Source: Deferribacterales bacterium
GTDB taxonomy: Bacteria > Chrysiogenota > Deferribacteres > Deferribacterales > Geovibrionaceae
Length of the DNA: 64,000 bases
Direction: 5' to 3'
Assembly (NCBI GenBank): GCA_050253075.1
Contig: JBFWJS010000005.1
Location: 142,769 to 206,768 of the forward strand
Position numbers and translations under genes: made by a program. Every line of letters starts with the position of its first letter. Positions within the stretch are counted from its first letter, which is position 1. Of this stretch, positions 17,432-42,426 are shown one piece after another. The notes beneath the pieces were generated by a model that was given only the letters and a program-made list of their open reading frames with translations, did not search any database and was not told where the DNA came from.

Positions 17432-18538
17432 TCAGATCACAGGCACGCCGAACCTTTTCGCCACCTCAGCCTTATCCACATCAAAGCCGAGCTCTATAGC
17501 ATCTTTTATAACATCCCAGTCGGCCTCCACCTTCATATCCAGTATGAAAGCAGGCACAGGCGCATCGCCGAAGTTCAGATCGACTATCCATCTAAGCAGT
17601 GTCCTCGTAAGCGTCTCCGACAGCGCCCCCGCTATCTTATAGCTCTTTGTCTGCAGTGTCTCGAGATGCTGCTGAGCCAGAGAATACGAGCCGTTTGTGG
17701 ATGTGTCGCTGGTGAGTATCTCGCCTGTCACGGCCTTTGATATCTCCGTATTGCATATGTTCACCAGCTCGGAAAAGTCCGCCGATGTACCCTTTGTCTC
17801 CAGCACCTGCACGCTGTCCACATTTGCCAGAGCCACAGCTGCATCTGACTGTATATTATAAAGATTTTCTGCCAGTTCTTTTGCCCTTGCCCTGCTGTCT
17901 GCATCGTCTATGGAGTCAAATAGAGCGAGCACCGTCGGCACGCCGTACTTCTCTGCCACTGTCAGCCAATACCTGAACCCCGCCTTTTTAAACATCCACG
18001 GCCAGTAGCATTTTGACAGAACGGGTGTGCCGTAGGGGTTCTCATTCTTCGGGCTGTTTCGGTGTACGACAAACTTGTACTCCTCCTCCAGAGGTATAGA
18101 CACGGCGCCGTCCGCCAGTGCCAGCCCGCCGTCGCTTGTGAATGCAAACCTTGAAGGCTTCCGCCCCATAGCGTTCACGGGTATCCAAGCCCCTTCTCTC
18201 TCTTCCCATATGATCTCTATCACGCTGAAGCCGTATTCCACGGCCATCATCATATCCTGCAGAAGCTGTTTCACGCCGAGCCCGTTCAGACAATCCTTCA
18301 CAAATGCGGCTATACCTGCGGATTCGTCGTCCATATCCTTCGCACGCACGTCCCACTTCATGGCAAAGACCCTGTCTTTCAGCTGTTCGAGCTTTGCGTG
18401 TATGTGGGCATCCTGAAGCATCTCGTCAAAGATGCTCATGTTCACCCCTGTCTTACCGAAAAGCACGTCTGGGTTTGTCATCATCCCCATAGACGTCACG
18501 TCTGTATTCTTTGTCAGCACACTTGTTAATCTGCTCAT
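17432..18538 (-). CDS. Phage portal protein, Mu gp29/DUF935-like
   Basis: DAHI..LEQ.K, YGFSVIEIIW, NPYGTPVL..CYWPW.FK, AEKYGVP, EISKAVTGEILTS; follows terminase genes. Confidence 0.88.
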   Translation of the reverse strand: MSRLTSVLTKNTDVTSMGMMTNPDVLFGKTGVNMSIFDEMLQDAHIHAKLEQLKDRVFAMKWDVRAKDMDDESAGIAAFVKDCLNGLGVKQLLQDMMMAVEYGFSVIEIIWEEREGAWIPVNAMGRKPSRFAFTSDGGLALADGAVSIPLEEEYKFVVHRNSPKNENPYGTPVLSKCYWPWMFKKAGFRYWLTVAEKYGVPTVLALFDSIDDADSRARAKELAENLYNIQSDAAVALANVDSVQVLETKGTSADFSELVNICNTEISKAVTGEILTSDTSTNGSYSLAQQHLETLQTKSYKIAGALSETLTRTLLRWIVDLNFGDAPVPAFILDMKVEADWDVIKDAIELGFDVDKAEVAKRFGVPVI

Positions 18539-18553
18539 ATCTATCTCCTTTCA

Positions 18554-19954
18554 TTAATATTTTTTGAACATATCTCCGCTCTTTCGCCCCGCTCCCGAGA
18601 ATGACGCCGAAGGCTTCACCCGTCTTTCCGTCTGGCTGAGAGCCTGTGTCATGGCATCCACCATGTCGTCATTTTTCCCGCCCGGGAATAATGCCGCCTC
18701 GTCCATCAGCTCCTCGGAGAACTTTGCCCCCCGTTTCAGATAGACATTCCCCGCCTCGAGCATAGGCGTGACGGCTATCGCCCTCGCTGTCTTGCTCCCC
18801 TGCGGATTCACGGGGATGAGCCCCTGTATCTCATTTTTCAGAGCGGATATCACAGCGGGGCCGTTCGCCTTATCTTCAATGTATTTAGCACGTGCCTGCG
18901 GGTACTTTTCCGTCATCATGCGCAGGGCTCGCAGGGCAGACATAAAGTCCATCCGCCCACGCACCTGATCCACAAGGTATCTCTCCGTGCCCCGAATCCC
19001 CCACACCTGACCGACCACAAAGTCTGAGCCGTCACCTCCGGAGAATGTCATATCCCACGACTGCACCATCTGCTCAAAGGCAGGCTCCGCATCGTAAAAG
19101 CGGAACCACGACTTTTTGAAAACTGCTCCGTCCTCGGGGGCTGGTCTCTGCTGATAGAGTGCGTTCCAAACACGGGAGCCCACTGCGGAGCGTATCTGTG
19201 CGAGGGCGTCTTCGTCATATTTCTCAGCCCAGAGCGGTTCACCCACGGTACGGAATGCCTCGTCCTCCTCTGCTATTGCGGGGAAGCTGACCACCTGCCA
19301 GCCGTCTCTGTCGGCATTCAGCAGTCTGCCTGCGAGGTCGTCCTCGTGCCAGCGGGTGAGTATGACGACTATCCGTCCCCCCTTCTCTATCCTTGTGTAC
19401 AGGGTGGACTGATACCAGTCCCACACCTTGTCACGATAGTTCTTGCTGTCGGCGTCCTCCTGATTTTTAAACGGGTCGTCGATGATGAGCAGGTCGCCCC
19501 CCATCCCCGTTATCGAACCGCCAACCCCCGCTGCGACATAGCCGCCGCCGTCTGCGGTCTCCCATCTGTCTGCTGCCTTTGACCTTCCGCTCAGCCCAGT
19601 GCCGAACGTCAGGCGGAATTTTGGATCTGCTACGATATCCCGCACCTTTCTGCCGAAGTTCTCCGCAAGTCGGGCACTGTATGATGTGGCTATCACCCGC
19701 TTTGTCGGGTGTCTGCCCAGAAACCAAGCGGGGAAACGCACGGATGCCAGCTCGCTCTTCCCGTGGCGCGGGGGCATGAGTATCATCAGCCTGCCGTCAG
19801 TCCCTGCCTCCAGCTCGGTGAGCTTATCCGCCAGCAGTCGGTGGTGCCAGTTCGGCTCGTATCCTCTGTATGTCAGCTTACAGAACGGGATGAGGCTCTC
19901 TCGGGCGAGCTTCAGCGCATAAAGTTTTTCAAAGTTTTCACTGCTTAGCTTCAT
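18554..19954 (-). CDS. Phage terminase large subunit
   Basis: MPPRHGKS Walker A, LLIIDD Walker B, TRWHEDDL, ALYQQRP, IEDKANG, NDDMVDAMTQA nuclease motif. Confidence 0.93.
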   Translation of the reverse strand: MKLSSENFEKLYALKLARESLIPFCKLTYRGYEPNWHHRLLADKLTELEAGTDGRLMILMPPRHGKSELASVRFPAWFLGRHPTKRVIATSYSARLAENFGRKVRDIVADPKFRLTFGTGLSGRSKAADRWETADGGGYVAAGVGGSITGMGGDLLIIDDPFKNQEDADSKNYRDKVWDWYQSTLYTRIEKGGRIVVILTRWHEDDLAGRLLNADRDGWQVVSFPAIAEEDEAFRTVGEPLWAEKYDEDALAQIRSAVGSRVWNALYQQRPAPEDGAVFKKSWFRFYDAEPAFEQMVQSWDMTFSGGDGSDFVVGQVWGIRGTERYLVDQVRGRMDFMSALRALRMMTEKYPQARAKYIEDKANGPAVISALKNEIQGLIPVNPQGSKTARAIAVTPMLEAGNVYLKRGAKFSEELMDEAALFPGGKNDDMVDAMTQALSQTERRVKPSASFSGAGRKSGDMFKKY

Positions 19955-20387
19955 GCATTATCGCTTTGGCATCCTCTACGCTCAGGTTATCCAGCTCACT
20001 CATAAGGTCGGCTATATTACCGTCAGCAGATTCGTCTTTGAGGAATTCGTCGGGGGATTTGCCTATGCAGATGTCCTTATAGTTTTTCACTGTTTTCGAA
20101 TGCAGTTCCACATCACGCAGATTCTCACACTCGTTGAGGAGTACATCCGCCTTTTCCAGCCCTGCCATTGTGCTGTTGCATATGGCATCCAGCATCTTCA
20201 CCCGATGATTTTTCAGCCTTCGGATTGTCTTATCCGTTTCGGGGCGTTTCCATTTTTCGGCATCGGCTCTGTTCTTCACCGTCTCTGTTTTTATGCCGTA
20301 TTCCTCTGACAGCTCGGACAGGTCATATACACCGTCCTCGTATTCACTGCGCATGGATGTCCATGTTTCCTTCGTTATTCTGCCCAT
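19938..20387 (-). CDS. Probable terminase small subunit
   Basis: N-terminal HTH (W..MRSEYEDG..LSELSEEYGI..TVKNRA..EKW), 149 aa, overlaps terL start. Confidence 0.75.
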   Translation of the reverse strand: MGRITKETWTSMRSEYEDGVYDLSELSEEYGIKTETVKNRADAEKWKRPETDKTIRRLKNHRVKMLDAICNSTMAGLEKADVLLNECENLRDVELHSKTVKNYKDICIGKSPDEFLKDESADGNIADLMSELDNLSVEDAKAIMHEAKQ

Positions 20388-20411: not shown

Positions 20412-20465
20412 GGATTCTACGCAGAAATTTGAATTAATATGTTTAAACACGATAGACTTAGAAAC
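20412..20465 (-). promoter_or_regulatory. Putative activator-dependent late promoter of packaging operon
   Basis: Minus strand GTTTC-N14-TTAAACATAT-N17-TAGAATCC; same layout at 30260-30313. Confidence 0.7.
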
Positions 20466-24578: not shown

Positions 24579-25769
24579 ATGGGTTTTTTCAGCATATTTA
24601 AAAAGAAGAAAGACGAGGTAGCCGAGCAGGAAGAGCAGGTTATCGAAAATGATATAGAAACCGAAGAGGAAGGCGAAGAGCCCGAAGCTGTCGAGGTGCA
24701 GGCGGAAGAACCTGCCGCAGTGGAAGAAGCTACAGACGAAGAGCCTGAAGATGATGAATCCGAGGACGAATCTGAGGACGAAGATGAAGAGGAAGAGCAG
24801 TCCGAAGCTGTAAAGCAGGACTATGCCGAGAAGCCTGCCGTGAAGCAGGGCTTCTTTAAAAGGCTGAAAAAGGGTCTCTCCAAAACATCCGGCAAGCTGG
24901 TCGGCGGGATGGAGAGCATCTTCACAGGGAAAAAGAACATCGACGAAGACCTCCTAGAAGAGCTGGAAGAGCTGTTCATCACATCCGATGTGGGCGTCCC
25001 CACCACAATGAAGATCATAGACAACGTACGCAGCGAGCTTTCCCGCAAGGCTCTGAAAGACCCACAGGAGCTCAAGGCCGAGCTTAAAAAACAGATCAAA
25101 AATATTCTCGATATACCGAACGACCTGAACACCACCGAAGATAAGCCATACGTGATAATGGTGCTCGGCGTGAACGGCGCAGGAAAGACCACAAGCATCG
25201 CAAAGATGGCTAAACGCTTTAAAGAGCAGGGACTTTCCACATGTCTCGCCGCAGGGGACACATTCCGTGCTGCCGCCATAGACCAGCTGTGCGTATGGGC
25301 AGACAGGGTGAAAGTACCCGTGGTGAAACAGTCCGAAGGGAGCGACAGCGCCGCTGTCATATTCGACGCTATACAGTCCTGCAGATCAAAGGGTATACAG
25401 GTACTCATTGCGGATACTGCGGGAAGACTGCATAATAAATTTAACCTGATGAAAGAGATGGAAAAGATAGTCCGCATATGTAAGCGGGAGCTGCCTGATG
25501 CGCCGCACGAGATACTCCTTGTGCTGGATGCTACCAGCGGACAGAACGCCCTCTCTCAGGCACAGAAATTCCACGAAAGCGTGGGCATCACAGGGCTGGT
25601 ACTCACAAAGCTGGACGGCACAGCAAAGGGCGGTGCGGTCATCGGCATCGTGGACGAGCTTCAGATACCTGTGAAATTCATAGGTTTCGGTGAAGGGATA
25701 GACGACATGAAGCCTTTCGATGCGGAAGACTTCGTCAATGCCCTCTTTGACAACGACACGGAGAACTGA
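24579..25769 (+). CDS. ftsY: Signal recognition particle receptor FtsY
   Basis: Acidic N-terminus, GVNGAGKTTSIAK, DTFRAAA, DTAGR, TKLDGTAKGG. Confidence 0.96.
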   Translation: MGFFSIFKKKKDEVAEQEEQVIENDIETEEEGEEPEAVEVQAEEPAAVEEATDEEPEDDESEDESEDEDEEEEQSEAVKQDYAEKPAVKQGFFKRLKKGLSKTSGKLVGGMESIFTGKKNIDEDLLEELEELFITSDVGVPTTMKIIDNVRSELSRKALKDPQELKAELKKQIKNILDIPNDLNTTEDKPYVIMVLGVNGAGKTTSIAKMAKRFKEQGLSTCLAAGDTFRAAAIDQLCVWADRVKVPVVKQSEGSDSAAVIFDAIQSCRSKGIQVLIADTAGRLHNKFNLMKEMEKIVRICKRELPDAPHEILLVLDATSGQNALSQAQKFHESVGITGLVLTKLDGTAKGGAVIGIVDELQIPVKFIGFGEGIDDMKPFDAEDFVNALFDNDTEN

Positions 25770-25776
25770 TCATAAC

Positions 25777-26115
25777 ATGCGCTTCCTATTTATTTTAATT
25801 GCTCTGGCATGCTTAATGCCTAGCCAAGCCCCCGCACAGGAGAATATCCGCGGGATATTCTTTGAAAACGATTCACCGCACATGCTCGGCGTACGCCTTA
25901 TCAACAGATACAGCAGAGTGGAGGATCACTATCTTTTCGACCCGAACAGCAAAGAGCACGTGGACACAAAGGTCGAAACATTCACACTCTCTGCACAGCT
26001 GATAACACCCAGCTATCAGATAGACTGCTGTGAATGGACACAGATACACAGCGGCGACACCGTCACCATAGAGTATCTGCCCGACCGCGACAGATGCTGG
26101 TGTAAGATAAAATAA
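25777..26115 (+). CDS. Small exported hypothetical protein
   Basis: MRFLFILIALACL..APA signal-peptide-like N-terminus; four Cys in C-terminal half. Confidence 0.6.
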   Translation: MRFLFILIALACLMPSQAPAQENIRGIFFENDSPHMLGVRLINRYSRVEDHYLFDPNSKEHVDTKVETFTLSAQLITPSYQIDCCEWTQIHSGDTVTIEYLPDRDRCWCKIK

Positions 26116-30259: not shown

Positions 30260-30313
30260 GTTTCAGGTTTAACCGCCCTTAAACATATCCATTATTTCAT
30301 TCCTGTACCATCC
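30260..30313 (+). promoter_or_regulatory. Putative activator-dependent late promoter of head-tail operon
   Basis: GTTTC-N14-TTAAACATAT-N17-TACCATCC; same layout as 20412-20465. Confidence 0.7.
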
Positions 30314-30343: not shown

Positions 30344-31036
30344 ATGAAACTGGAACTGGCGAAAACCGGAAACCATAACGGCATCACCATAACAGAAGAA
30401 GACCTGAGAGACATGGCAGCGACCTTTACAGGCGATGTGCCCGTCACAATAGGTCACGAGGCCGACGACTCCATGCCCGCATACGGCTGGGTCACCGCTC
30501 TAGAAGTGTCCGAAGACGGACAGACACTCACAGGCGAACTGGAGCTGAACGAAGAGCTCCAGCAGGCTATCGCAGAGGGACGTTACAAGAACTGGAGCAT
30601 AGGCGCAGGCAGAAACGCAGACGAGCAGATGTATCTGCACCATGTGGCGTTCCTCGGCGCTGTCCCCCCGATGATAAAGGGGCTGAAGCTCATCGAGATG
30701 GGCGACAGGTCAGACATCGTCACATTCGCCATAAACGGCGGATGCTCACTCACCCTCTCCGATGCGGAGCTCTCCGAATACGCATCACTGCGTAAGGAAA
30801 AGAAGAGCGCACTCATCAAAAAGCTCTCCGACGCATCAGCGGGGAAGATCCCCTTCGGCAAGCGTGAGGAGCTCATCAGATTCGCAGACTCTCAGCTCTC
30901 CGCAGGCGGCGAAGAGATAGTCTCCATGCTGGCGGAGATATTCGAAAGCGTGAAACACCCAGTGAGAGAAGGGATATCCCAAGCCATCAGAACAAAAAAC
31001 GCTGAAACGTCCGTAAACGTATTCAGCAAAATCTAG
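30344..31036 (+). CDS. Phage prohead protease/scaffold, Mu gp32(I)-like
   Basis: PVTIGH..SMPAYGWV..L, GRYKNWSIG, YLHHVAFLGAVPP.IKGL; AAGGAGG RBS. Confidence 0.8.
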   Translation: MKLELAKTGNHNGITITEEDLRDMAATFTGDVPVTIGHEADDSMPAYGWVTALEVSEDGQTLTGELELNEELQQAIAEGRYKNWSIGAGRNADEQMYLHHVAFLGAVPPMIKGLKLIEMGDRSDIVTFAINGGCSLTLSDAELSEYASLRKEKKSALIKKLSDASAGKIPFGKREELIRFADSQLSAGGEEIVSMLAEIFESVKHPVREGISQAIRTKNAETSVNVFSKI

Positions 31037-31045
31037 GAGGAATAA

Positions 31046-31408
31046 ATGGCAACAGTAAACGGCGTTATCGGTCAGCAGACCATCACAGACAAATCTGTCA
31101 TCGACGACAGACACCCCGCAGTGATCCGCTTTATGCAGTTCAAAGCAGACAACGGCATCATCGGAGCAGGCGAGATACTCGCACTGGATTCTAACGGCGA
31201 CGTGGTCTCATACGACCCTGCATCAGGCGGAACAGAGGCATCACCTATCGGCGTGTGCTCATCACAGACAGACACGGCGAAAGATACCGCAGGCGGAGTC
31301 ATCATCCATGGAACAGTAGTAGGCGCAAGCCTTCTCACCCTCGGCGTAAAAGCTGTCTCCGCAGAGATAGAAGCCCTCGAGGCAAACACACTCATCTGGT
31401 CATTCTAG
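31046..31408 (+). CDS. Head decoration protein (lambda gpD-like)
   Basis: 120 aa, GEILAL..G..VSYDPASGGTEASPIGV pattern; between protease and capsid genes. Confidence 0.65.
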   Translation: MATVNGVIGQQTITDKSVIDDRHPAVIRFMQFKADNGIIGAGEILALDSNGDVVSYDPASGGTEASPIGVCSSQTDTAKDTAGGVIIHGTVVGASLLTLGVKAVSAEIEALEANTLIWSF

Positions 31409-31420: not shown

Positions 31421-32404
31421 ATGATACAGCTTGATCTCAGCAGATATTTCACAACAGACTCACTCATCAAAGCACTCACAAACATGCCGGAGCTTAAATC
31501 CCCCGTCATGGACAGCATCTACACGGCGGACAAACGCAGAAACCACCCTCTGCCGACAGTCTCCGTCAGCGACCTCCAACAGGCGGTTAAGAACATAGCT
31601 ATCACAAAAAGAGGCGGAGAACCTGTGCCTGTCTATGAAGAAAGCATGAACATCACACACATCGAACCTCAGCCGTTCAGACCTTCCGAAAGACTCAACG
31701 GAGTGGACGTGAATAACCTCAAGCTCCTCGACGAGACAGGCGTGGAGCTCCTCGTAAATAACAAGATAGACAGACTCCGCCGCATCGTCAGAGCATCCAC
31801 AGAGGCTATGGCGGCACAGTCGCTCACAGGCTCTATCGCATACCCTATGGCTATGGACGGCGGATACGGCACATACAGCGTGGACTTCGGCTCCACACTC
31901 AGCCACTCCGTCGGCACTGCATGGACAGACTCGGGCATCACACTCGACGCCGTCCTCGCAGACCTCATCAGCATGGAGGCAAACATCCAGGCTGAGACAC
32001 ACTACGGCTCCGACATCCGCTTCTGGGCGGGTCAGGACGCCTTCATGGCTCTGGCAAAGATCGTCCAGGACGTCAACAACACAGGCATCACGGGCATGAT
32101 AGACGCAAGAACCATCAACATAGCAGGATTCAGGGTAGAGCTTCAGAACAGCTCATACACAGACCTCGCCACAGGCTCGCAGACAAAGGTCGTGGATACT
32201 TCAAAGGTGATGGCGTTCGCCGCCGATGCACCTTTCGAGCTGGTCTACTCTGTCATAGACGACCTCGACAGCAACCTTACTGCCATGCCTTTCTTCGTAA
32301 AGAGCGTGAAAGACCCGAGGTCCTCAAGCATCGAGATCATCGCAGAGAGCAAACCGCTCCCTGTTCCGTTCACAAAGGGTATTTGCTGGGCAACAGCCGT
32401 ATAA
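31421..32404 (+). CDS. Major capsid protein (lambda gpE-like family)
   Basis: 327 aa; LRRIVRASTEAMAAQSLTG.I, VDFG, C-terminal IIAESKPLPVP typical of gpE-type capsids; strong RBS. Confidence 0.82.
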   Translation: MIQLDLSRYFTTDSLIKALTNMPELKSPVMDSIYTADKRRNHPLPTVSVSDLQQAVKNIAITKRGGEPVPVYEESMNITHIEPQPFRPSERLNGVDVNNLKLLDETGVELLVNNKIDRLRRIVRASTEAMAAQSLTGSIAYPMAMDGGYGTYSVDFGSTLSHSVGTAWTDSGITLDAVLADLISMEANIQAETHYGSDIRFWAGQDAFMALAKIVQDVNNTGITGMIDARTINIAGFRVELQNSSYTDLATGSQTKVVDTSKVMAFAADAPFELVYSVIDDLDSNLTAMPFFVKSVKDPRSSSIEIIAESKPLPVPFTKGICWATAV

Positions 32405-33563: not shown

Positions 33564-34532
33564 ATGAATCAGACAGACATAAAAATACTGAAAGCAGAAA
33601 CGATAACAGACGACAGCATAAACGGCGGGAGGGTCAGCTTCGCCTCTGAGGTGATCAGCGGAGTGAAGTTTAACCTGTTCCCCAGAGTGACATCATCCGA
33701 AAGGGACAGTGGAGTGACAAGATACCGTAAGGCCTTCATCGGCAACATGAACCCGCTGGGCGAGACGGCATACGGCGCATCTGTCGCCATCAGTACCCCC
33801 GGCAACGGCGAAGACAGGTTCTATATAAAGCAGGGAACACACTCAGACACACAGGACGACCTGACATCGGACGGATGGACAGGATGCGGAACGCTGGCAT
33901 ACACGGCATCCGCTGGGGACACATCCATACAGGTAATTTTTAAATCCAGCGACTACGCCATCCCCGAGGGCGCTATGCTCATAATCAAAGATGATCTGGA
34001 AAACACCGTGAACATACGCACATCGGCATCGGCACCGTGCGCAGAGTGGAACGGCACAACGGCGACAATACAGCTCGAATCCCAGCTCCCAGACGGATTC
34101 TCTTCATACAGCACACACGTGGGCGTGATGATAGAAACGGGCGACCTAGCTCCTGAGATGACTGACATATCGGTATCATCCTCATCAGGCACATTCGACG
34201 AGAGCATCGTAACCCTCTATAACGGCGGAACAATAGCGGACACATACTCAGTCACATTCGACAGTGCATTCAGCTTTGCCGTGTCGGGTGCGGAAACAGG
34301 CGCACTGGCATCGGGCACCACAGGCTCCGCATATGAGCCGTCTAACCCGCAGACAAACAAACCTTATTTCAGCATACCTTCTGAAAGCTGGTCGGGGATA
34401 TTCGAAGCTGGCGACACTGTGACATTCACCACTGCGCCTTCGTGTGCTGGCTTCTGGATAAAAGAGGCTGTCCCCGCAGGGTGCGCACACGAGCCGAACA
34501 ACAGCTTCAATCTGGACTGGATGATAGATTAG
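33564..34532 (+). CDS. Putative tail-tip protein
   Basis: DIKILKAETITD...GGR...EVISGV.FNLFPRVTSSER..GVTRYRKAF resembles a conserved prophage tail protein N-terminus; Ser/Thr/Gly-rich. Confidence 0.6.
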   Translation: MNQTDIKILKAETITDDSINGGRVSFASEVISGVKFNLFPRVTSSERDSGVTRYRKAFIGNMNPLGETAYGASVAISTPGNGEDRFYIKQGTHSDTQDDLTSDGWTGCGTLAYTASAGDTSIQVIFKSSDYAIPEGAMLIIKDDLENTVNIRTSASAPCAEWNGTTATIQLESQLPDGFSSYSTHVGVMIETGDLAPEMTDISVSSSSGTFDESIVTLYNGGTIADTYSVTFDSAFSFAVSGAETGALASGTTGSAYEPSNPQTNKPYFSIPSESWSGIFEAGDTVTFTTAPSCAGFWIKEAVPAGCAHEPNNSFNLDWMID

Positions 34533-34539: not shown

Positions 34540-35769
34540 ATGGCTAACCTTACATACGCGAATTTCGCACTATCAAAGCTGACACAGGCACTCTCTGCAT
34601 CGGGCACAGCCGTACACATAGCAGACGACGCCCTCTTCCCCGACGGATACTTCACCGCCGTGATATGGAGCGCAGGGGTCGGCTCACCTCTGGAGGATGC
34701 AGACAGCGAGCTGCTGACGCTGATGCGCACATCCGCAGGAGTTTTCGAAGCGGTGCGGGGAGATGAAGGGACAACTGCCCGTGACTGGGCGCAGGATTCC
34801 CTGATAGCAAACGTGGTGACGGCGGAAACTATGGAATACATATACTCCGCAGCTGGGAACACGGCATCCGTCACCGTGATGTCCGACACCGCATACACCA
34901 TGGAAAGGGACGACACAAAGATGCTGTGTACATTCACCCCCGCAGAGGGGGAAAAGTCTGTCACCCTCCCCGCATCGGATGTGTGTGAAGGGCTGACATA
35001 TACGATACTCAACAGAGGCATATATCCGCATCAGACACTAAAGCTATATCCGAACGCATCCGACGGATATGCACATACTGCCGAAGGATACATAAGCATA
35101 CCTTCGGGCGGGTCTGCACAGCTTATACACAGCGATGACGGATGGGTCGTCATATCAGCAAACGCCGACAGCTACAAAAACCTGCGCATAATAGACGAAG
35201 ACATGCCGAGCGTATCATTCGGCGAGGGCACACTGTATGCAGACACATCGGCAGAGGATATAAACATCACCCTCCCCTCGGCAAAGGAATACTGCGGTGT
35301 CCCCCTCAAGATATATAAATTCTCCGACGACGCAAACAAGGTGATCATCAGCGGATACGAAGGGGACAGCACCCCCGTAGAGCTGACGGAGCAGTGGCAG
35401 TCCGCCGTGTTTGTCATGAGCCAGAGCGGGACAGTATATATGACAGACGGTCCGCAGGCTTCAGCACCTTCATCAGGGACATCCGAGGGGGACGTGATCT
35501 TCCTGTCTGAAAACAGGTTCCTCGACGGCAGCGAACGCTTCATCTTCGTGACGACAGGGTCAGTGGGGATACACTCATACCTGCCCGAGCCGAGCGCACA
35601 CACGGGAAAGATGGTAACGGTGAAGAAGATAGACTCTGGCTCAGGCGTTGCCATCATCTTCCCCATAGACAGCACAATAGACGGTGCAGCAGACTTGGTG
35701 GAGCTCACACAGCAGTGGCAGTACGCCACATTTGCCTGCGGCGGAGACGGCTGGTACAGGGTAGGCTGA
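34540..35769 (+). CDS. Putative tail fibre protein with three internal repeats
   Basis: VRGDEGTTARDW motif; repeats TLPASDVCEG / TLPSAKEYCG / YLPEPSAHTG and VELTEQWQ / VELTQQWQ. Confidence 0.6.
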   Translation: MANLTYANFALSKLTQALSASGTAVHIADDALFPDGYFTAVIWSAGVGSPLEDADSELLTLMRTSAGVFEAVRGDEGTTARDWAQDSLIANVVTAETMEYIYSAAGNTASVTVMSDTAYTMERDDTKMLCTFTPAEGEKSVTLPASDVCEGLTYTILNRGIYPHQTLKLYPNASDGYAHTAEGYISIPSGGSAQLIHSDDGWVVISANADSYKNLRIIDEDMPSVSFGEGTLYADTSAEDINITLPSAKEYCGVPLKIYKFSDDANKVIISGYEGDSTPVELTEQWQSAVFVMSQSGTVYMTDGPQASAPSSGTSEGDVIFLSENRFLDGSERFIFVTTGSVGIHSYLPEPSAHTGKMVTVKKIDSGSGVAIIFPIDSTIDGAADLVELTQQWQYATFACGGDGWYRVG

Positions 35770-35770
35770 T

Positions 35771-37411
35771 ATGTTTATACAATGCGGAGCACCGCTTTTA
35801 AACATATCTCTGTCCTCACAGTCAGGGCTGAACGGCAGTCTGAGCATCACAGCCCCCTTTGTGATAGACGGCAGTGTGGAGCTTGCCTCCGCACTGTCCA
35901 TTTCGGACAGCCTGAACCTGCCTATACCGGAGGGGCTGAACGGCGAGCTGTTGATATACGCACTCTTTGCCGAGGTATACAGAGGCTCGGATAATATCCC
36001 CGTCAGTCTGTCTGCTATGGATGAAGCCACTGTCGCCTGTAATACGGTGAACGCACTCGCCCTTGATGGAGCCGTATCTATATCCTCAGAGCTGGCAGAA
36101 GCCTTTGAGGGCAGTCTGACATCCTTAAACACCATAGGCGAGTATGCACTCAGAGCATCAACTGACATCAGGATACCGTTCGGGCTGTATGACACATCAG
36201 GAAGCTGTGAAATACGCCTTCCCCAAACCACAGCCCACGTCATAAAGGACGAGCTGGAAGTATATGCAGACGGCATCGACATCACAAAGCTGTTAAGGAG
36301 CGCAGAGATAAAACTCTTCGGCGGAAATGAACCGATCAGGCTGAAAGCATTGCTGAAACCTCTGAAAAATACGCCGAAGTACATCGACATCTTCATCAAC
36401 GGTGAGGCATACGCCTTCCGCATTGATACGGCGGAGCATTCCTCTGAGCAGTGCACCCTGACTGGCAGTATGCCGAGCGGATACGCATCCGTGACAGCAG
36501 GTATAAAGCGTGCATCGGCCCTGTGTGCCGATGATACTGACATAATATTCTCTGCTGCGGATTTCGTCACTCAGGGGATAGAGGCAGACGGCACAGACCA
36601 CGGCATAGCAGTGATGCTGGCTGAGATGTGCGGAGCAAAAGCCCGCCAGATGAAGGACGGCAGGAGCATGGTATACGATGCGAGTTCATGCGCAGTATAC
36701 ACGCCGAAGCATATCCTTAGCTGGGCAAAGACTGCCCCCGAGAGGTTCAAAGGGGTAGTTGAAGTGATATACGGCAAAAACGGCGACGACCACATAACTC
36801 TGGAGCCATCATCCAGAAAAGCCGTGAAAGGCATCAGCCTGAAAGTATACGGTAAGAGCGGCATCCCCGTGAGAGCCGACGGCGGGAAACTGAAGCTGAT
36901 AAACAGCGGAAACAGAGAGACCGTGACTGAGGACATAATATTCGAAAACGGATACGGCAGACTGTCTAAACCCTGCATGAAGATGCTCTCCGCAGGCTTC
37001 ACCGCCGACGGAAAGAAGGTCTATGCAGATGCATACTGCATCACGGCAGGCATCAGGTACGAGACCACATACGACCTGTACACCGTATCCGCAGAATCAG
37101 ACAGTGTGACACTGTGCGCCTATCTGGATAATCGGGTGGTCATAATGAAAGGGAGCGGCAGCATAACGAGCATCACAGCCGAAAACATATGTGACCACGC
37201 CACGGCTTATAAACTGGCGAAGTCGAAGCTGGCAGAGGCATCGGACAAGCTGACCCTGGTGACCACACACTCGAACATACTGAACACGACAGGCGCACTG
37301 AAAGTAAAAACACCATACGGCACAGGCGAGGCAATCAGCGCATCCATAAACATAAGCACCGCTCCGCTCAAGATAACAGACAAACTGGAGGTACAGATAT
37401 GGCAAAGGTAA
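35771..37411 (+). CDS. Putative tail hub/baseplate protein
   Basis: 546 aa, tightly packed in virion operon. Confidence 0.5.
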   Translation: MFIQCGAPLLNISLSSQSGLNGSLSITAPFVIDGSVELASALSISDSLNLPIPEGLNGELLIYALFAEVYRGSDNIPVSLSAMDEATVACNTVNALALDGAVSISSELAEAFEGSLTSLNTIGEYALRASTDIRIPFGLYDTSGSCEIRLPQTTAHVIKDELEVYADGIDITKLLRSAEIKLFGGNEPIRLKALLKPLKNTPKYIDIFINGEAYAFRIDTAEHSSEQCTLTGSMPSGYASVTAGIKRASALCADDTDIIFSAADFVTQGIEADGTDHGIAVMLAEMCGAKARQMKDGRSMVYDASSCAVYTPKHILSWAKTAPERFKGVVEVIYGKNGDDHITLEPSSRKAVKGISLKVYGKSGIPVRADGGKLKLINSGNRETVTEDIIFENGYGRLSKPCMKMLSAGFTADGKKVYADAYCITAGIRYETTYDLYTVSAESDSVTLCAYLDNRVVIMKGSGSITSITAENICDHATAYKLAKSKLAEASDKLTLVTTHSNILNTTGALKVKTPYGTGEAISASINISTAPLKITDKLEVQIWQR

Positions 37412-37896
37412 CAGTGAGTTTTGTCACCGCAGATGATGAAAGCAAGATGACCATAGAGAGCGACCCCGACAGAAACAAAGACTATACGGGCAGGACAAAG
37501 ACAAAATTCCGCTACGGCGACACGGCGTACTTCAGAGTATACAGCCATGAGGCCGAAAAGATATCCGCATCCGCATCCGACGGCGAGCTCACCGACATGG
37601 GGATATACACAGGCACTATAGCAGACGAGGTGCTCCCGTTCATCACGGAACAGACGGCAGACACAGAAAAGCCCGTTAAAAAGATAAGCGGATATGAATG
37701 GCTGGGGAACAGCCTCGGCAGTGTGACGGCATACGACAGCTACAGCGTGCAGGCATCATCCGCCCCCACAGAGTCTAAGATCGCCGCACTCTCTCTCACA
37801 TACCAGACTACATACAGGCTCTTCGGGCTGACACTGGCGAAGCGGGATATATCCGAATACCCCGTCATAGTATATGTGAGGTCGGGCGATGTCTGA
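37399..37896 (+). CDS. Hypothetical virion-operon protein
   Basis: GGAGG RBS, overlaps both neighbours. Confidence 0.6.
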   Translation: MAKVTVSFVTADDESKMTIESDPDRNKDYTGRTKTKFRYGDTAYFRVYSHEAEKISASASDGELTDMGIYTGTIADEVLPFITEQTADTEKPVKKISGYEWLGNSLGSVTAYDSYSVQASSAPTESKIAALSLTYQTTYRLFGLTLAKRDISEYPVIVYVRSGDV

Positions 37897-38614
37897 GAGC
37901 AAGATAACATTCACCTCGGCTGATACGGGGCTGTCCAGCTTTAAGTTCGTACTGGAGGCAGCGGAGAACGGGGGTAAGACGATATTTGCCCCCGACGAGC
38001 GGGCAAGGCTGAAACTCTACCCCGGCGGACAGAACCCGCAGATAAGCACATCGTGGGGCTCGGCGGAGGTATACATGAGAGGAGTGAAGCAGACCTTCAC
38101 CGAATACATCGCCTTCCGCTCTGCCGACTCTGGGAATACGACATACTTCATAGAAAAGCTGATATCCGCATCGTGGGAAGGGATAGGCGAAGGTAGACCG
38201 CTCATATACGGCAGCAGGATAATCCTCCCCGCCGTCACCACAGGCGTGCTGAAGGTTCAGTATGAGACCAGCTATGACCTGATAGACGTCACATGCTCTC
38301 ACCCTACATATATGCTGGTCAGCGCTGAGAGTGAGGCACTTGCAGGAGATTTCCTCGTGGACTTCAGCGACGGATACCTGACGGATGTGTATGACAAAGA
38401 CGTGGTGATGACCGTGCGTGACGCCTGTACAAAGGAGACCCTGCCGAATGCGTCGGTATATATAAACGGGAGCTTCAGCGGGCGCACGGACAATGCGGGA
38501 CTTATCAGGCTGGGCAGTATGAAATCGGGCACTTACGCCCTGCGCATCACCCGTGACGGATACACTGACACGGACAAAGACACCATCGGCAACGATTACT
38601 TTACGGTGGAATAA
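37889..38614 (+). CDS. Virion-operon protein with C-terminal PEGA/carboxypeptidase-regulatory-like domain
   Basis: LPNASVYING..SGRTDNAG...SGTYALRITRDGY. Confidence 0.6.
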   Translation: MSESKITFTSADTGLSSFKFVLEAAENGGKTIFAPDERARLKLYPGGQNPQISTSWGSAEVYMRGVKQTFTEYIAFRSADSGNTTYFIEKLISASWEGIGEGRPLIYGSRIILPAVTTGVLKVQYETSYDLIDVTCSHPTYMLVSAESEALAGDFLVDFSDGYLTDVYDKDVVMTVRDACTKETLPNASVYINGSFSGRTDNAGLIRLGSMKSGTYALRITRDGYTDTDKDTIGNDYFTVE

Positions 38615-39618
38615 TGGCACTGGGCAGCGAAAGATACCTAACCCCCAACATATATATATGCAAAGACAGATACTACCCTAAGGGGATCTGCTACGGCAAT
38701 AAATGCTCATCCACAGGGCTGACCGTGACGGAAAAGGACATAACCGAAACCGTCAGCATGTATGTCGGGGGCAGAAAGATAGCAGACATCACAAGCATCA
38801 CGGCGAGGCAGATAAACATAAGGGTGAACCTATCCCCCGCAGGCGGTACGGCCAGAAGGATAACGGCATACTTACTGCCCAACGGCTCGGGTGAGGAATG
38901 TATGCTGGCATCACCACCATGCAGGGAGATAGACACCGACAGCGGCGTGAAATGGTATGAGGACGGCGACTTCATCACTGCGGAACTGCCTCTGGCGGAG
39001 CACTGCGCCGTAAACAAATTCCAGACCACATACAGCAGCGGAACCATAAGGACAGACACGCCAACATCCATAGGCGAGGCAGACGGAGAGAGCGTCACCC
39101 TCACCTTTGACGACGGAGGGAAGACCCTGCATAAGACATCGATATCGGAGAAATACCTTATCCCCGGGAAGGAAACTGCAGTGCACTACGGACTGCGCGG
39201 TGTGGACGGGTATCACTACCTAGCCATCATAGACTTTCAGACGGAGATATTCACATCCGCCGAATTTGCAGGATGCGGACTCGTGAAAAGGGAAAAGGTT
39301 TATAAGAATCCATCCCGACCGGAGCTGGACTACACATATGAATATGTCCCATATGCAGGTGGCATCGGCAAGACCATACGCAAGGAATGGAGCTACGACA
39401 CAAACTACCGCATATGTGTCGCATTCCGAGGAAAACACTACTGGATAAAGAGCACAGACCACGCACCGTATGAGATAGGTCAGAGGGTATTCATAATGAA
39501 GGGCACCTCCGACATGCCCCTTATCCCCGACGAATCTTCCAGCAGGAACGCATCGGACACCCTGTCTGAATACGATGACGTGGCTGTGCCCGAGCATTTT
39601 TACAGCGGGGTGAACTGA
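38614..39618 (+). CDS. Hypothetical virion-operon protein
   Basis: 334 aa, TAATG coupling. Confidence 0.6.
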   Translation: MALGSERYLTPNIYICKDRYYPKGICYGNKCSSTGLTVTEKDITETVSMYVGGRKIADITSITARQINIRVNLSPAGGTARRITAYLLPNGSGEECMLASPPCREIDTDSGVKWYEDGDFITAELPLAEHCAVNKFQTTYSSGTIRTDTPTSIGEADGESVTLTFDDGGKTLHKTSISEKYLIPGKETAVHYGLRGVDGYHYLAIIDFQTEIFTSAEFAGCGLVKREKVYKNPSRPELDYTYEYVPYAGGIGKTIRKEWSYDTNYRICVAFRGKHYWIKSTDHAPYEIGQRVFIMKGTSDMPLIPDESSSRNASDTLSEYDDVAVPEHFYSGVN

Positions 39619-40643
39619 TGGACATGATACACAGCACCAGCATAAAAGACCCATTGAGAAACATCGGCTACAGGACAGGCATCGTCCTCGGGACAAACCG
39701 TGAGGCTGTCACGGCAACAGTGCTGACGGGGGGCAGTGTGCTCACCCTCCCCGTCGTGTATAACTGCCCCGCTGGATACAGCTCCGCAGATGCATTTGCC
39801 GTGGGAGACGATGCCGTTATCAGGCTGTATAAGGGCGAGCCTTCCCATGTGGTAGGATTCCCCCGTACTTCATGGCCGTGCGTGCGCACACCTGCACTGG
39901 TCTTTGAAGCGGAAGAGCCGTACACATACGACACAGAAGCCTTCATACAGCACCCTGCGAAGTTTTACGACAGGTATAAACCGCTGAAGGAATACGAGTG
40001 CGAGGTTGACCACACTTTTTATCTGAACAAATCAAATGCCGCCACAGACGACGCCTTTGTTTCCATAGAGACAGACTGGTACGACGGCGTGTGGAACAGG
40101 TATACAGAGTTCTACTACGGAGCGGAGCTTATCTATACCACGCATAATAATGAAACGGCGGCGCACGTCTTCAACGGCACCAGATCGAATGTATTCGGCA
40201 GATATATAAATCCCCGCACGGGCTGGGGGTGCATGATCTATCAGATAAACACCTTCACCGATTGGAGGCCGAGGGCATCAGGCAGGGTGGACTTCAACTA
40301 TTACCTATACACCTCCACAGGCATAAACATGCCCATAGCATCGGCATATGCAGAGGTGGACAGTGCATCCGCACAGACATACGGACCGGTGATAGGCGAG
40401 GCCTCCTGCACCATGCTTCTGGACAGCTATGCAGGGAACATTATGAAAGCAGACATCACCCTTTGCAGCGGAGGGATGTTCACCTCAGACGGAAGTATAA
40501 ACACCGCCGAGGCAGGCGAAGAGATGAAACACAGCATATGCATCATAACCGAAGGCATGGAAGAACCCTTCACAGAGATATACGGCATAAACACAAAAGA
40601 AATGCCGAGCGAGAACTACAGAATATACGTAAAAAGAAGATAG
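39618..40643 (+). CDS. Hypothetical virion-operon protein (possible OB-fold spike-like N-terminus)
   Basis: TGATG coupling; GIVLG...TATV...LPVVYNCP...FAVGDDAVI...PSHVVGF. Confidence 0.55.
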   Translation: MDMIHSTSIKDPLRNIGYRTGIVLGTNREAVTATVLTGGSVLTLPVVYNCPAGYSSADAFAVGDDAVIRLYKGEPSHVVGFPRTSWPCVRTPALVFEAEEPYTYDTEAFIQHPAKFYDRYKPLKEYECEVDHTFYLNKSNAATDDAFVSIETDWYDGVWNRYTEFYYGAELIYTTHNNETAAHVFNGTRSNVFGRYINPRTGWGCMIYQINTFTDWRPRASGRVDFNYYLYTSTGINMPIASAYAEVDSASAQTYGPVIGEASCTMLLDSYAGNIMKADITLCSGGMFTSDGSINTAEAGEEMKHSICIITEGMEEPFTEIYGINTKEMPSENYRIYVKRR

Positions 40644-40656
40644 AAGGAGAACGGGA

Positions 40657-41871
40657 ATGAGCTATAAAAGCACAAAAGAGATACTGAACGCCGTTTTCGA
40701 CAGCAGTGACGGCACTCTGAAAACAACCTATAAGACCGAGGGCGAGGTCTTTAACCTTGTCTATGACGAGGATGCCAACGCTCTGCGGGTGAACATCGAA
40801 GGATTCACCGGAGGCACAGGGGGGATAATCGACGGCGAGGCAGCCACATTCGCAGACCTGCCCGCCGCATCAGAACACGCAGGTGATATATATATTGTAC
40901 ACGCCACCACTGGCGTGATGCTGATAAACCGCAGACAGGCGGGGATGTACCGCTCGGACGGCACTTCATGGAGCCTGCTCGACGTGAACCTGTCTGCCGA
41001 CAAAGTATACTATACGGGCACACTGACATCAGAAAATGTGCTGGACGCACTGGAAGAGCTTAATACCGCAAAAGCAGAGATGATATATTCCAGCGTCACG
41101 CTGAATGTCGCCAATTCAGGCGGAGACTTTGCAAGCCTGAACGATGCGCTGGCTTATCTGAATAATTACCGCCTCGCTCCGAATGTGACAGTCACCATCC
41201 AGATAGCAGACGGTACTTATGCCGTTACAAACACAATCAATCCCAATCACCCTGATTTATCTAATATAAGGATAACGGGAAACACCACCGACCATACAAA
41301 AGTGATACTGGACTGCTCAGATATAAGCGTCGGTATAAGTCTCACTGATGGCGTTGTATGCTATATGGGGGGCTTCACAATCATAGGCTGCACAACTGGT
41401 CTTATGGTAGGAAATGGTGCCACTGCTAGATTATTATATACATTTGAGTGCAGTTACTGCTCCACAGGGGTATATGCGCTATACCACGGCTGTATAATAG
41501 CCTCAGCACTTATAGCTAGTAATAACACTTTGAGAGGTGTGTTCCTTTTAAGATCTTCAAATATGACTGTTACAGGTAATTGTATAATTGATAACAACGG
41601 TAGTGACGGCATAAAACTTCAGGAAAACTCCAAAGCGAATCTTCGCGGTTCTAGCATAGAAAACGGTAGTATCTCAAATAATGGCGGCAGCGGAGTCTAC
41701 TGTGTATCACAAGGAGAAGTGTTTACATACAATATGACCATAGACGGTAACGGCAGCTATGACATAATTGCAAACGATCTTTCTAACGTATTTGCCCAAA
41801 GTTGTGTTTACAGCACACTATCCCCTAATCTCAGAACAGTAGGAAATGACAACTCATATATTTTAGCGTAG
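40657..41871 (+). CDS. Tail spike/receptor-binding protein with right-handed beta-helix
   Basis: ATFADLPAAS..AGDIYIV, GDFASLNDAL..IQIADGTY, NNG..G repeats. Confidence 0.7.
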   Translation: MSYKSTKEILNAVFDSSDGTLKTTYKTEGEVFNLVYDEDANALRVNIEGFTGGTGGIIDGEAATFADLPAASEHAGDIYIVHATTGVMLINRRQAGMYRSDGTSWSLLDVNLSADKVYYTGTLTSENVLDALEELNTAKAEMIYSSVTLNVANSGGDFASLNDALAYLNNYRLAPNVTVTIQIADGTYAVTNTINPNHPDLSNIRITGNTTDHTKVILDCSDISVGISLTDGVVCYMGGFTIIGCTTGLMVGNGATARLLYTFECSYCSTGVYALYHGCIIASALIASNNTLRGVFLLRSSNMTVTGNCIIDNNGSDGIKLQENSKANLRGSSIENGSISNNGGSGVYCVSQGEVFTYNMTIDGNGSYDIIANDLSNVFAQSCVYSTLSPNLRTVGNDNSYILA

Positions 41872-41878
41872 GTGATTC

Positions 41879-42193
41879 ATGAAAGTATTTATAAAAAATG
41901 ACAAAATTATCGCAACACACGGAAACGAACAAAACGTCATATACAATGAAGCAGTATGTATATACTGCTCCGAAGGAACAAGAGCTGAATTTGACAAGCC
42001 CTTCAGCGAACAGGGGATACAGCCCCTTTCAAATGCCGAGGTAAGGAGCATAAGGTATAAGCTGGAGTCGGACCCTCTCTTTGAAGCGGCACGAAATGAA
42101 GCGATATACGACGGCACTGAACCCGACTATACGAAAGCCATAGCAAAGGCCGCAGAGATAAAAGCCGACCTGCCCATAGACGGGGAGGCATGA
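41879..42193 (+). CDS. Putative tail fibre assembly chaperone
   Basis: Follows spike gene; RSIRYKLESDPLF...AEIKADLP. Confidence 0.55.
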   Translation: MKVFIKNDKIIATHGNEQNVIYNEAVCIYCSEGTRAEFDKPFSEQGIQPLSNAEVRSIRYKLESDPLFEAARNEAIYDGTEPDYTKAIAKAAEIKADLPIDGEA

Positions 42194-42426
42194 TGACCAT
42201 AGAGATATCAGACATCATACAGACACTGGGGAGCATAGCGAGCCTTGTGCTCATCCCCATATGGCGCTCCATCAATGCACTGCGGGAAAGCCAGAACAAA
42301 ACGAACATAATCCTGGCTCGTGACTACGTGAGCAAAAAGGAGTGCCGGGAGAGGCACGGACAGCTCCACAGCGACATGATAAGGATACACGCACGCATAG
42401 ACGAGACAACGGATAAAAAGTATTAA
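42190..42426 (+). CDS. Small holin-like membrane protein
   Basis: 78 aa, one N-terminal hydrophobic helix then charged tail; last gene of virion operon. Confidence 0.45.
   Translation: MMTIEISDIIQTLGSIASLVLIPIWRSINALRESQNKTNIILARDYVSKKECRERHGQLHSDMIRIHARIDETTDKKY

Follow-up and report, generated by a model that had tools for sequence, protein, structure and literature searches.

A split, family-wide set of phage-derived virion genes in Deferribacterales as a candidate gene transfer agent

The capsid and portal of RcGTA, a gene transfer agent (GTA), belong to HK97-type families, and its lysis genes occupy a separate locus; PBSX, the killer particle of Bacillus subtilis, is encoded by one contiguous cluster, has a contractile tail, and is restricted to a handful of closely related species. 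The GTAs whose genetic basis is known are listed, in the relevant sections of PMC9662315 and PMC12946183, as the RcGTA-like, Bartonella and Brachyspira groups together with Caulobacter and the candidate FpGTA, and the same sections mention GTA particles of Desulfovibrio and Methanococcus whose encoding genes are less well known. The function of GTAs is itself under debate, as passages of PMC9632790 and PMC11841831 set out. Here we describe two modules of phage virion genes, one for DNA packaging (terS-terL-portal) and one for the head and tail, in a stretch of 64,000 nucleotides (the window, G000:C5:142769-206768) of a Deferribacterales bacterium. The two modules very probably belong to a phage-derived particle system that has been domesticated by its host. 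Full-text literature searches turned up no publication dealing with a GTA or with a conserved prophage of the Deferribacterota, and PMC6896113 has the word 'prophage' only in two figure legends; subscription journals are thinly covered by such searches, and an older description is possible.

What the data show directly is which genes these are, that they have descended vertically throughout the family under purifying selection, how they are split, and that they share a promoter-like motif. The genome carrying the window (G000; 3.04 Mb in 17 contigs, 99.89% complete) is one of a family set of 16 genomes in four genera, designated g1 (the window genus, including G000), g2, g3 and g4. Genera g1 and g4 together comprise 11 genomes including G000, of which seven are g4, and g2 and g3 comprise five (four of them g3). 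Fifty-five proteins of the window were scanned against Pfam, with phage families assigned by Pfam and PHROGs, and 36 window genes were compared in a gene matrix with the 15 other family genomes. The wider comparison drew on 25 genomes from seven other families of the order and on a phylum set of 68 genomes (52 outside the family).

An earlier reading of the window, made from the sequence only, had described terS, terL and a portal gene on the minus strand about 10 kb from a 16-gene operon on the plus strand, and all of the genes that it named were recovered by Pfam and PHROGs where it had placed them. The virion genes are as follows (lengths in amino acids, aa; ORF, open reading frame).

17432..18538, minus strand: portal protein of the Mu type, 368 aa (PF06074, E 2e-86; phrog_113)
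18554..19954, minus strand: TerL, large terminase, 466 aa (PF03237, PF17289; phrog_38, E 4e-131)
19938..20387, minus strand: small-terminase-like DNA-binding protein, 149 aa (weak PHROG matches to TerS/DNA-binding proteins, E 4e-5)
30344..31036, plus strand: prohead (head maturation) protease (phrog_976, E 6e-29; in 15/15 other genomes)
31046..31408, plus strand: head decoration protein, lambda gpD-like (phrog_49, weak PF02924; in 15/15 other genomes)
31421..32404, plus strand: major capsid protein, lambda gpE type (PF03864, E 7e-59)
32471-32827 (118 aa), 32725-33198 and 33186-33563, plus strand: three small ORFs in the head-tail connector position (no Pfam match; the third is phrog_4408)
33564..34532, plus strand: tail-tip or distal-tail-like structural protein, 322 aa (from a structure model and homologue context; in 15/15 other genomes)
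34540..37411, plus strand: two fast-evolving tail proteins, 409 aa and 546 aa (27-46% identity even inside the genus)
37399..40643, plus strand: four ORFs in the tail/baseplate position, 165, 241, 334 and 341 aa (the first phrog_24905; the second with a CarboxypepD_reg-like domain)
40657..42193, plus strand: beta-helix tailspike/fibre (404 aa) and a 104-aa ORF (PF13229)
42190..42426, plus strand: putative holin-like protein, 78 aa, last gene of the operon (one hydrophobic segment in its sequence)

The terL gene is present as a single copy in G000 and in 15/15 other family genomes at 58-82% identity, and an alignment of TerL over the four genera retains more than 200 invariant columns, the GKS and DD motifs among them. 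The portal gene is likewise found at full length in 15/15 other genomes (52-82% identity). The terS-like gene, which overlaps the start of terL, is also present in 15/15 and is more divergent (30-67%). With NCBIfam, 17 of 18 virion-associated proteins gave nothing apart from a chance-level match of the TerS-like protein (E 0.0025), and the tailspike gave one weak beta-helix repeat match.

The head-tail operon (30344-42426) consists of 16 co-directional genes with overlapping or abutting junctions, and the protease ATG at 30344 is preceded by the ribosome-binding site AGGAGG, in agreement with the tight coupling and good ribosome-binding sites that had been read from the sequence. The capsid gene occurs in all 15 other family genomes (61-88% identity). 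The three connector-position ORFs occur, in order, in 15/15, 10/15 and 14/15 of them; the true start of the second probably lies later than 32725, because its homologues align only from residue 26-35. The 322-aa protein is the best-conserved tail protein and belongs to a large, mostly viral family with 1753 representatives. Its AlphaFold2 model from a 106-row alignment reached a pLDDT (predicted local distance difference test score) of 97.5, a 7-row alignment giving an unusable model with a pLDDT of 42. A beta-barrel domain in the model (residues 72-192) resembles the Dit/tail-tip domains of phages Chi, JBD30 and T5 (VIA-wide, Z 8.6-11, ~85 residues). A Foldseek search of the PDB returned no whole-fold match (template-modelling score, TM, ≤0.22), and BFVD yielded two viral proteins with TM 0.85 and 0.77. 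Homologues of the 322-aa protein lie directly after the tape-measure gene in Vibrio siphophages, and one is annotated 'tail fiber' in Ralstonia phage RS138.

The 409-aa protein is beta-rich, and an internal repeat in its gene with the motif VELTEQWQ... (35377-35413 and 35698-35734, spacing 321 nt) points to a duplicated domain. In the Atlas the neighbourhood of the 546-aa protein is viral, with YQBQ, a family named after a PBSX/skin-type protein, in 11-14% of the neighbours. The 165-, 241- and 334-aa genes are present in 15/15 other genomes and the 341-aa gene is full length in 10/15. Sequence and profile searches of five tail proteins against the PDB returned nothing below E 0.03. Only the first ~50 residues of the tailspike are kept in relatives, the 104-aa ORF is found in 0/15 other genomes, and in a near-identical (95-97%) strain an unrelated sequence replaces window positions 41213-41998, which correspond to the C-terminus of the spike and most of the 104-aa ORF. 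The spike and the 104-aa ORF thus look like a swappable receptor-binding cassette that would be exchanged at the strain level. The 78-aa protein that closes the operon is present in 10/10 other g1 and g4 genomes (58-74% identity); its description as holin-like comes from the single hydrophobic segment.

Both modules were found in all 15 other family genomes with conserved neighbours, and synteny inside each module is kept throughout. The genes present in 15/15 of these genomes in the 36-gene matrix are portal, terL, terS, protease, decoration, capsid and the 118-, 322-, 165-, 241- and 334-aa genes; two further genes reach 14/15, and some tail genes, together with two helix-turn-helix (HTH) genes and an S8 peptidase gene described below, are limited to g1 and g4 (10/10 others). 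TerL and capsid, each in 15/15 other genomes of the four genera, were found in 0/25 genomes from the seven other families of the order. A TerL profile run over the phylum matched 15/15 genomes in the family and gave 2 weak matches (E 1e-13 and 3e-32) in the 52 others. Public contigs matching TerL include Denitrovibrio, Seleniivibrio and other Deferribacterales, and capsid homologues occur in Denitrovibrio acetiphilus (86%), Seleniivibrio woodruffii (80%) and Limisalsivibrio acetivorans (62%). Outside the family the relatives of TerL show ≤50% identity, and the 35 other query proteins are without a match in those 27 loci. Within the family, the identity of the virion proteins to those of the window drops in step with that of the chromosomal protein SMC.

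TerL identity to the window: g1 78-82%, g4 66-70%, g2/g3 58-60%
Capsid identity to the window: g1 86-88%, g4 79-80%, g2/g3 61-64%
Portal identity to the window: g1 79-82%, g4 67-69%, g2/g3 52-54%
SMC identity to the window: g1 81-85%, g4 66-68%, g2/g3 48-49%

Maximum-likelihood trees of 16 rows gave the same topology for TerL and SMC down to the sub-clades, and those of capsid and portal, which are less resolved, showed no supported conflict with it. The comparison of TerL and capsid trees with the host tree, proposed as a check of the sequence-only reading, is consequently in its favour.

Selection on the virion genes is of the strength seen for host genes. Synonymous sites are saturated within the window genus (pS ~0.75-0.8), and the ratio of non-synonymous to synonymous substitution rates (dN/dS) was taken from the closest g4 pairs, mostly G012-G014. 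In these pairs virion and host genes have a similar dS of 0.15-0.7, with glnK (0.05) as the exception. The dN/dS of virion genes is 0.012-0.21 (capsid 0.033, terL 0.033, portal 0.040, the 78-aa gene 0.012), with the 409- and 546-aa tail proteins, in these pairs and in the contig comparison below, at 0.12-0.21, and that of host genes is 0.036 for smc, 0.031 for ftsY and 0.051 for amtB. A ratio near 1 and pseudogenised orthologues had been named beforehand as signs of a decaying prophage; the ratios are far below 1 and equal to those of host genes, and no systematic pseudogenisation was seen across the family genomes. A 15.9 kb 'viral' contig in IMG/VR turned out to be the same chromosomal region (S8 peptidase, tetratricopeptide repeat (TPR) lipoprotein and head-tail operon) of a 95-97% identical strain. 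Relative to this contig 16/16 genes are stop-free, 14 have a dN/dS of 0-0.17 (capsid 0.074), and two tiny genes with 5-7 changes each have 0.23 and 0.44. The contig lacks ~120 nt of the capsid gene (L123:4841-4847; ~38-40 codons, in frame), equivalent to window positions 31720-31839; the gap may be genuine, as a deletion variant, or may have arisen in assembly.

The separation of the two modules differs among the genera. In the window genus they lie ~10 kb apart on opposite strands, in g4 they are on different contigs in 7/7 genomes with the break between rok and the next gene, and in g2 and g3 both are on one strand, 27-37 kb apart. In a g3 genome (G007) the interval holds genes for an MqnC-like enzyme, Memo, HSP20, Lon, glnK-amtB, a sulfate permease, Ffh, RimM, TrmD, and ribosomal proteins L19, L13 and S9. 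An assembly error joining the segments, the remaining concern attached to the split arrangement, is excluded because the one-contig genome G002 of the same genus has the identical arrangement. Among contigs from four sequencing runs, the junctions are bridged in the run from which the genome probably derives, and short bridging pieces occur in other runs.

A shared promoter-like element links the two modules. The motif TTAAACATAT-N16-(G/T)TAnnAT, often followed by CC, is found upstream of terS and the protease gene at 22/22 sites in the 11 g1 and g4 genomes; TTAAACATAT is exact in 18 of these and has one mismatch in 4, and begins 40-65 nt before the start codon. The two sites in the window are the following.

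20414..20446, minus strand: promoter-like motif TTAAACATAT-N16-GTAGAAT, its 10-mer starting 59 nt upstream of the terS start
30279..30311, plus strand: promoter-like motif TTAAACATAT-N16-GTACCAT, its 10-mer starting 65 nt upstream of the protease ATG

In its strict form the pattern matches 18 times across the 16 family genomes, with 15 matches falling at the two modules, and its reversed control matches twice; the 3.04 Mb of G000 contain exactly two. A weight matrix derived from 30 sites of ten other genomes, with G000 left out, was run over the 6.08 million positions of G000 and ranked the protease site first (32.3 bits) and the terS site second (22.7), the next position scoring 18.5. A scan with the sigma-70 consensus listed no site at the starts of the two modules. 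In several head-tail promoters TTAAAC is preceded, at a distance of exactly 10 nt, by another TTAA(A/C)C-like half-site (in the window GTTTAACC...TTAAAC, 30267-30288), and a full tandem copy of it is present in G003, G008 and G013; the repeated half-site suggests a direct-repeat binding site for a putative activator.

The motif also leads to a candidate lysis locus. Two of the 3 strict matches outside the modules precede a gene for a 153-163-aa T4-type lysozyme (PF00959, E 5e-13). The G000 orthologue is on another contig (C7:63399-63857) with an exact 10-mer 122 nt upstream. Lysozyme orthologues without stops are present in 11/11 g1 and g4 genomes (53-71% identity) and in 0/5 g2 and g3 genomes, where the only match (36%) sits inside a sporadic Mu prophage; one further match was found in the 52 other genomes of the phylum. 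At all 11 loci the motif (0-2 mismatches), N16 and a TATAAT-like element lie upstream, and in 10/11 the lysozyme gene is followed by an overlapping 59-64-aa ORF with a hydrophobic N-terminal segment, a holin candidate. The lysozyme locus is thus the predicted supplier of the endolysin that is missing from the window. Since the motif occurs at the packaging, head-tail and lysozyme loci, at least three unlinked loci are under one promoter type in g1 and g4. The next-best matrix positions in G000 (C2:13401 and C5:219828) and the strict match in G003 (C4:27715) have no close co-directional gene downstream and were dropped as chance. Divergent from the lysozyme promoter in G000 (C7, L130:2923-3306, minus strand) is a gene for a 127-aa zinc-ribbon protein with a membrane segment and no family match. 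In g2 and g3 a related element, AACAW-N19-TATATTYC or, more loosely, RACAW-N19-TATATTYC, precedes both modules in 4/4 g3 genomes and terS in g2, and is too degenerate to point to a lysis locus.

The window genome also contains a phage with which the split element can be compared. At 585-625 kb of contig C1 (L120-L122) lies a contiguous, apparently complete Mu-like myovirus prophage, from the transposase side through the fibre. It encodes GemA, DUF3164, a MuB-like ATPase, an rve transposase, a repressor, an amidase, Mu gp27, TerL and a 503-aa Mu portal, and then MuF, protease, decoration protein, capsid E, gp36, sheath, tape-measure, baseplate V and J, and fibre. Its head proteins are 28-38% identical to those of the window (portal 28%, protease-decoration-capsid 30-38%). 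The Mu-like phages are sporadic, because MuF is found in 4/16 family genomes, always away from the split element; the split element is universal in the family and has no MuF. The capsid protein had no match among 50,697 phage records at E 1e-5, two capsid scans of IMG/VR returned only the near-identical chromosomal piece, and a scan with P0014 returned none.

The genes between the modules encode a Fic protein, a ROK kinase, an unassigned protein, a spore photoproduct lyase (SPL)-like radical SAM enzyme, FtsY, a small secreted protein, HTH_17 and HTH_3 proteins, an S8 peptidase and a TPR lipoprotein; those already named from the sequence (ROK, radical SAM, ftsY and the lipoprotein) were borne out by Pfam and, for the last, by a lipobox. 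The flanks are smc and glnK-amtB, as had been read, although the rhodanese placed beside smc is a 169-aa ORF (16831-17340) without a Pfam match. The remaining window is ordinary chromosome with dcw genes, chemotaxis genes and transporters. Of the 55 window proteins scanned, Pfam assigned none to an integrase, transposase, replication or endolysin family, which upholds that part of the sequence-only reading, with an endolysin gene at the motif-linked locus elsewhere; nor does the window have a tRNA gene or an att-like flanking repeat. Several of the neighbours are candidate members of the system.

25720..26115, plus strand: small secreted protein, candidate system member (signal-peptide-like N-terminus)
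26116-26433, minus strand: HTH_17 protein, candidate regulator (Pfam)
26414-26839, plus strand: HTH_3 protein, candidate regulator (Pfam)
27086-28981, plus strand: IetS-like S8 peptidase (Pfam; PADLOC IetS, E 7e-91)
29221..30210, minus strand: TPR lipoprotein (TPR families; lipobox LMTAGC), divergent from the protease gene

A homologue of the small secreted protein lies directly after the portal gene in 5/5 g2 and g3 genomes and is present in 3/3 other g1 genomes; in the g3 genome G007 (L030:6409-6780) a gene with a PilZ domain, of the c-di-GMP-binding type, directly follows the portal and small secreted-protein genes. The HTH_17, HTH_3 and S8 genes adjoin the head-tail module in 10/10 other g1 and g4 genomes, with dN/dS of 0.05-0.09, and were not found in the g2 and g3 regions examined. 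The S8 peptidase aligns with positions 72-706 of 749 of the PADLOC IetS model and scores 216 bits with NCBIfam IteS, against a cut-off of 900 bits. No ATPase match that could be its IetA partner was given by Pfam or PADLOC beside it, its neighbours being HTH_17, HTH_3 and the TPR lipoprotein, and its gene may be either a stand-alone defence gene or one recruited into the particle system. The TPR lipoprotein gene adjoins and diverges from the protease gene in 15/15 other genomes (29-59% identity), with variable genes beyond it. A tandem double-HTH_3 (RstR/Cro-like) gene (44837-45673, minus strand) lies 2.4 kb past the tail operon here and in g4, and in g2 and g3 it is beside the packaging module, ~1.1 kb from the small gene following the portal; it may encode a regulator, and in each case it has remained close to one of the two modules. 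Of the two Fic-domain genes in the window (20500-21639 and 9898-10986), the former matches the SoFic defence model (E 2e-33) and directly adjoins the terS promoter, as it does in 10/10 other g1 and g4 genomes.

Composition, which the sequence-only reading had called host-like, is not simply so: the modules have 52-56% GC and the genome 46.6%. Over the 16 genomes the GC of the virion genes tracks that of the host (43-54%) and is higher than it in 15/16. This tracking means that the genes have been resident for a long time. A higher GC content of GTA genes has been described in the Alphaproteobacteria, and the offset here resembles it.

On genomic evidence the element combines GTA traits, namely caudovirus-derived structural and packaging genes, vertical inheritance, purifying selection, and the lack of self-propagation genes with dispersal of the loci. 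Of the sequence-only proposal of a candidate GTA, the domesticated and host-maintained part is supported by distribution, trees and dN/dS; the particles, the packaging and the transfer are what we infer from genome evidence. That the particles would be a GTA in the strict sense, being produced, packaging random DNA and transferring it, is a reading towards which the evidence leans with moderate confidence, because the TerS/TerL/portal set is conserved, means of self-propagation are absent, and the loci are dispersed. A fuller version is favoured by a narrower measure. The element would be an independently exapted GTA and a new viriform family, the first in the Deferribacterota, and its phage ancestor would have had a portal of the Mu type and a capsid of the lambda-E type. 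The element would comprise a regulon of at least three loci (packaging, head-tail and lysis) on one dedicated promoter type, TTAAACATAT-N16-TAnnAT, conserved since before the Denitrovibrio/Seleniivibrio split and with a related form in deeper genera. Domestication of that phage would have occurred in the common ancestor of one Deferribacterales family. On some signal, a dedicated factor would activate the shared promoter at three unlinked loci: terS-terL-portal, the protease-decoration-capsid-tail operon, and the lysozyme with its small membrane protein. Capsids would assemble on the portal and be matured by the protease, TerS and TerL would fill them with DNA by a headful mechanism, the tail with its swappable beta-helix spike would be joined, and the producer cell would be lysed by the lysozyme cassette. 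Given that essential host genes split the loci and that no integration or replication function is present, such a particle should be incapable of propagating itself and would most likely carry host DNA to kin.

Several observations weigh against a GTA. The argument that one particle cannot carry all of the genes draws on the dispersal of the loci alone, conserved DNA packaging is also a trait of PBSX-type killer particles, which do not transfer genes, and the HTH-like N-terminus of the TerS-like protein could give sequence-specific packaging. No RNA run is among the 23 sequencing runs that contain the stretch. The g2 and g3 genomes are without the lysozyme orthologue and several tail genes, and their promoter element is tied to the modules by position only, because its genome-wide frequency equals that of the reversed control. 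Capsid homologues of 49-57% identity on short contigs may come from related free phages or from further hosts. Internal stops occur in two metagenome-assembled genomes (MAGs), in the terL, S8 and 341-aa genes of G001 and in the 334-aa gene of G003; a sequence or assembly error is the likelier cause, because smc, a core gene, also has a single in-frame stop in G003. Searches with Pfam, PHROGs, NCBIfam and PDB sequences did not recognise a tail tube, tape-measure or sheath protein, and the particle may therefore be short-tailed, or part of the tail may be unrecognised or encoded elsewhere; a short tail consisting of the tip is possible.

The main rival is a PBSX-like defective-phage particle kept for killing or competing with related strains, in which DNA is packaged and not productively delivered. 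Such a particle would be just as compatible with vertical descent, purifying selection, putative host-type control, and lysis genes in a cassette of their own, and a fast-evolving receptor-binding end swapped between near-identical strains is expected under strain-level antagonism. Killing of the PBSX type depends on a contractile tail, however, and no sheath or tube gene was recognised here, though the sheath of the resident Mu-like prophage is readily detected with the same tools; selection on TerS, TerL, portal and decoration protein, as strong as on the capsid, is also more than killing would seem to need, and the idea is on the whole unlikely. Rather less likely still is a domesticated particle with another cargo or purpose, such as delivery of protein or specific DNA, DNA repair or stationary-phase survival. 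It would account for the IetS-like protease, the two HTH proteins and the TPR lipoprotein, which are kept beside the head-tail operon and are without parallel among the GTAs described so far, and the debate over GTA function in the cited passages of PMC9632790 and PMC11841831 lends it some room, but the conserved terminase pair points to DNA and there is no positive sign of a specific alternative cargo.

The two remaining explanations are both very improbable. An old, grounded and functionless prophage remnant might have stayed intact by chance or by hitch-hiking beside smc, ftsY and glnK-amtB, and the position of the virion genes among housekeeping genes, a tail module without recognisable tube and tape-measure genes, and three virion genes with stops in two MAGs can be read in this way. 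Such a remnant would have had to keep ~20 genes intact in 16/16 genomes at a divergence where SMC is only 48% identical, with dN/dS of 0.01-0.2, far from 1, through at least three different rearrangements of the modules and with a specific promoter motif conserved at three loci, and the stop in smc of a MAG with virion-gene stops points to sequence errors. An active temperate or transposable phage that infects the whole family or reintegrates at one place, the split being a rearranged functional prophage, is suggested by head genes of the Mu type in hosts that Mu-like phages do infect, by the 15.9 kb of the region held as a viral contig in IMG/VR, and by capsid relatives at 49-57% identity on other contigs. 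The IMG/VR contig nevertheless shares the chromosomal context of the window (S8, TPR), the window has no integrase, transposase, repressor-operator module or replication gene, and in one genus ribosomal-protein genes and lon stand between the modules, which in another genus are found on different contigs. Moreover, the phylogenies of the genes agree with that of the host, their dS is the same as for host genes, and outside the family only TerL has similar relatives (≤50%), with 0/35 other proteins matched in 27 loci.

No GTA is known to have been described in the phylum before, and each independent case bears on whether bacteria repeatedly make phages into DNA-exchange organelles. The phylum is deep-branching and has cultured, non-pathogenic members, so that the candidate is directly testable, and the same genomes hold a clean contrast between a domesticated element (16/16) and a real Mu-like prophage (MuF in 4/16). 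The short, highly specific promoter motif that links unlinked loci is a handle on the regulator and on further loci, and a shared-promoter search, as used here for the endolysin, could help to delimit other dispersed GTA 'genomes'.

With regard to known systems, Mu-like phages (BcepMu, phiE255 and the resident prophage) share with the element a Mu-type portal (28% to BcepMu) and the gene order protease-decoration-capsid E. In contrast to these phages, the window has no MuA/MuB, GemA, repressor, MuF, Mu gp27, gp36, sheath, tape-measure or baseplate J, the portal has 368 aa instead of the 503 aa of the resident prophage, and the element is not contiguous and is universal in the family. PBSX is also a chromosomal, defective phage-type element, and the YQBQ that 11-14% of the neighbours of the 546-aa protein carry in the Atlas is a second point of contact. 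Unlike PBSX, the element here is multi-locus and family-wide and has no recognised sheath. In the part of PMC12946183 that deals with it, PBSX is reported to package 13.4 kb of evenly dispersed host DNA.

Among GTAs, the candidate FpGTA of Faecalibacterium (Nat Commun 2026) resembles the element in lying outside the Alphaproteobacteria and in having two distant operons (~125 kb), one with lysis genes, and is reported in the same sections of PMC12946183 to be podovirus-like and conserved over the species of one genus. Its packaged host DNA of 8.4-8.9 kb is documented there by long reads, whereas the element here is known from its genes and is likened to FpGTA by description; the host phyla also differ. 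BhGTA/VSH-1 of Brachyspira (Brachygtaviriformidae) is, according to the account of it in PMC9662315, a non-proteobacterial GTA whose terL lies outside the structural cluster, has a single copy, is conserved in the lineage and co-diversifies with the host; terL is single-copy and conserved here too. The same account gives its genes as mostly without phage homologues and synteny as lost among Brachyspira species, whereas here clear phage families are present and synteny is kept. RcGTA and its family, the Rhodogtaviriformidae of the Alphaproteobacteria, share with the element chromosomal phage-derived head-tail genes, co-divergence with the host, slow evolution and a dispersed 'genome', as described in sections of PMC9662315. 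Separate lysis genes are common to both as well. The differences are that no tube or tape-measure gene was recognised here, that the host is of another phylum, that the packaging genes form a separate, opposite-facing module instead of heading the structural cluster, that the promoter motif is not the same, that CtrA-type control is not known here, and that the capsid is of the lambda-gpE type (PF03864), the portal of the Mu type (PF06074), and a decoration protein is present. Because the Pfam families of these head genes differ from those of RcGTA, an independent origin of the element is likely.

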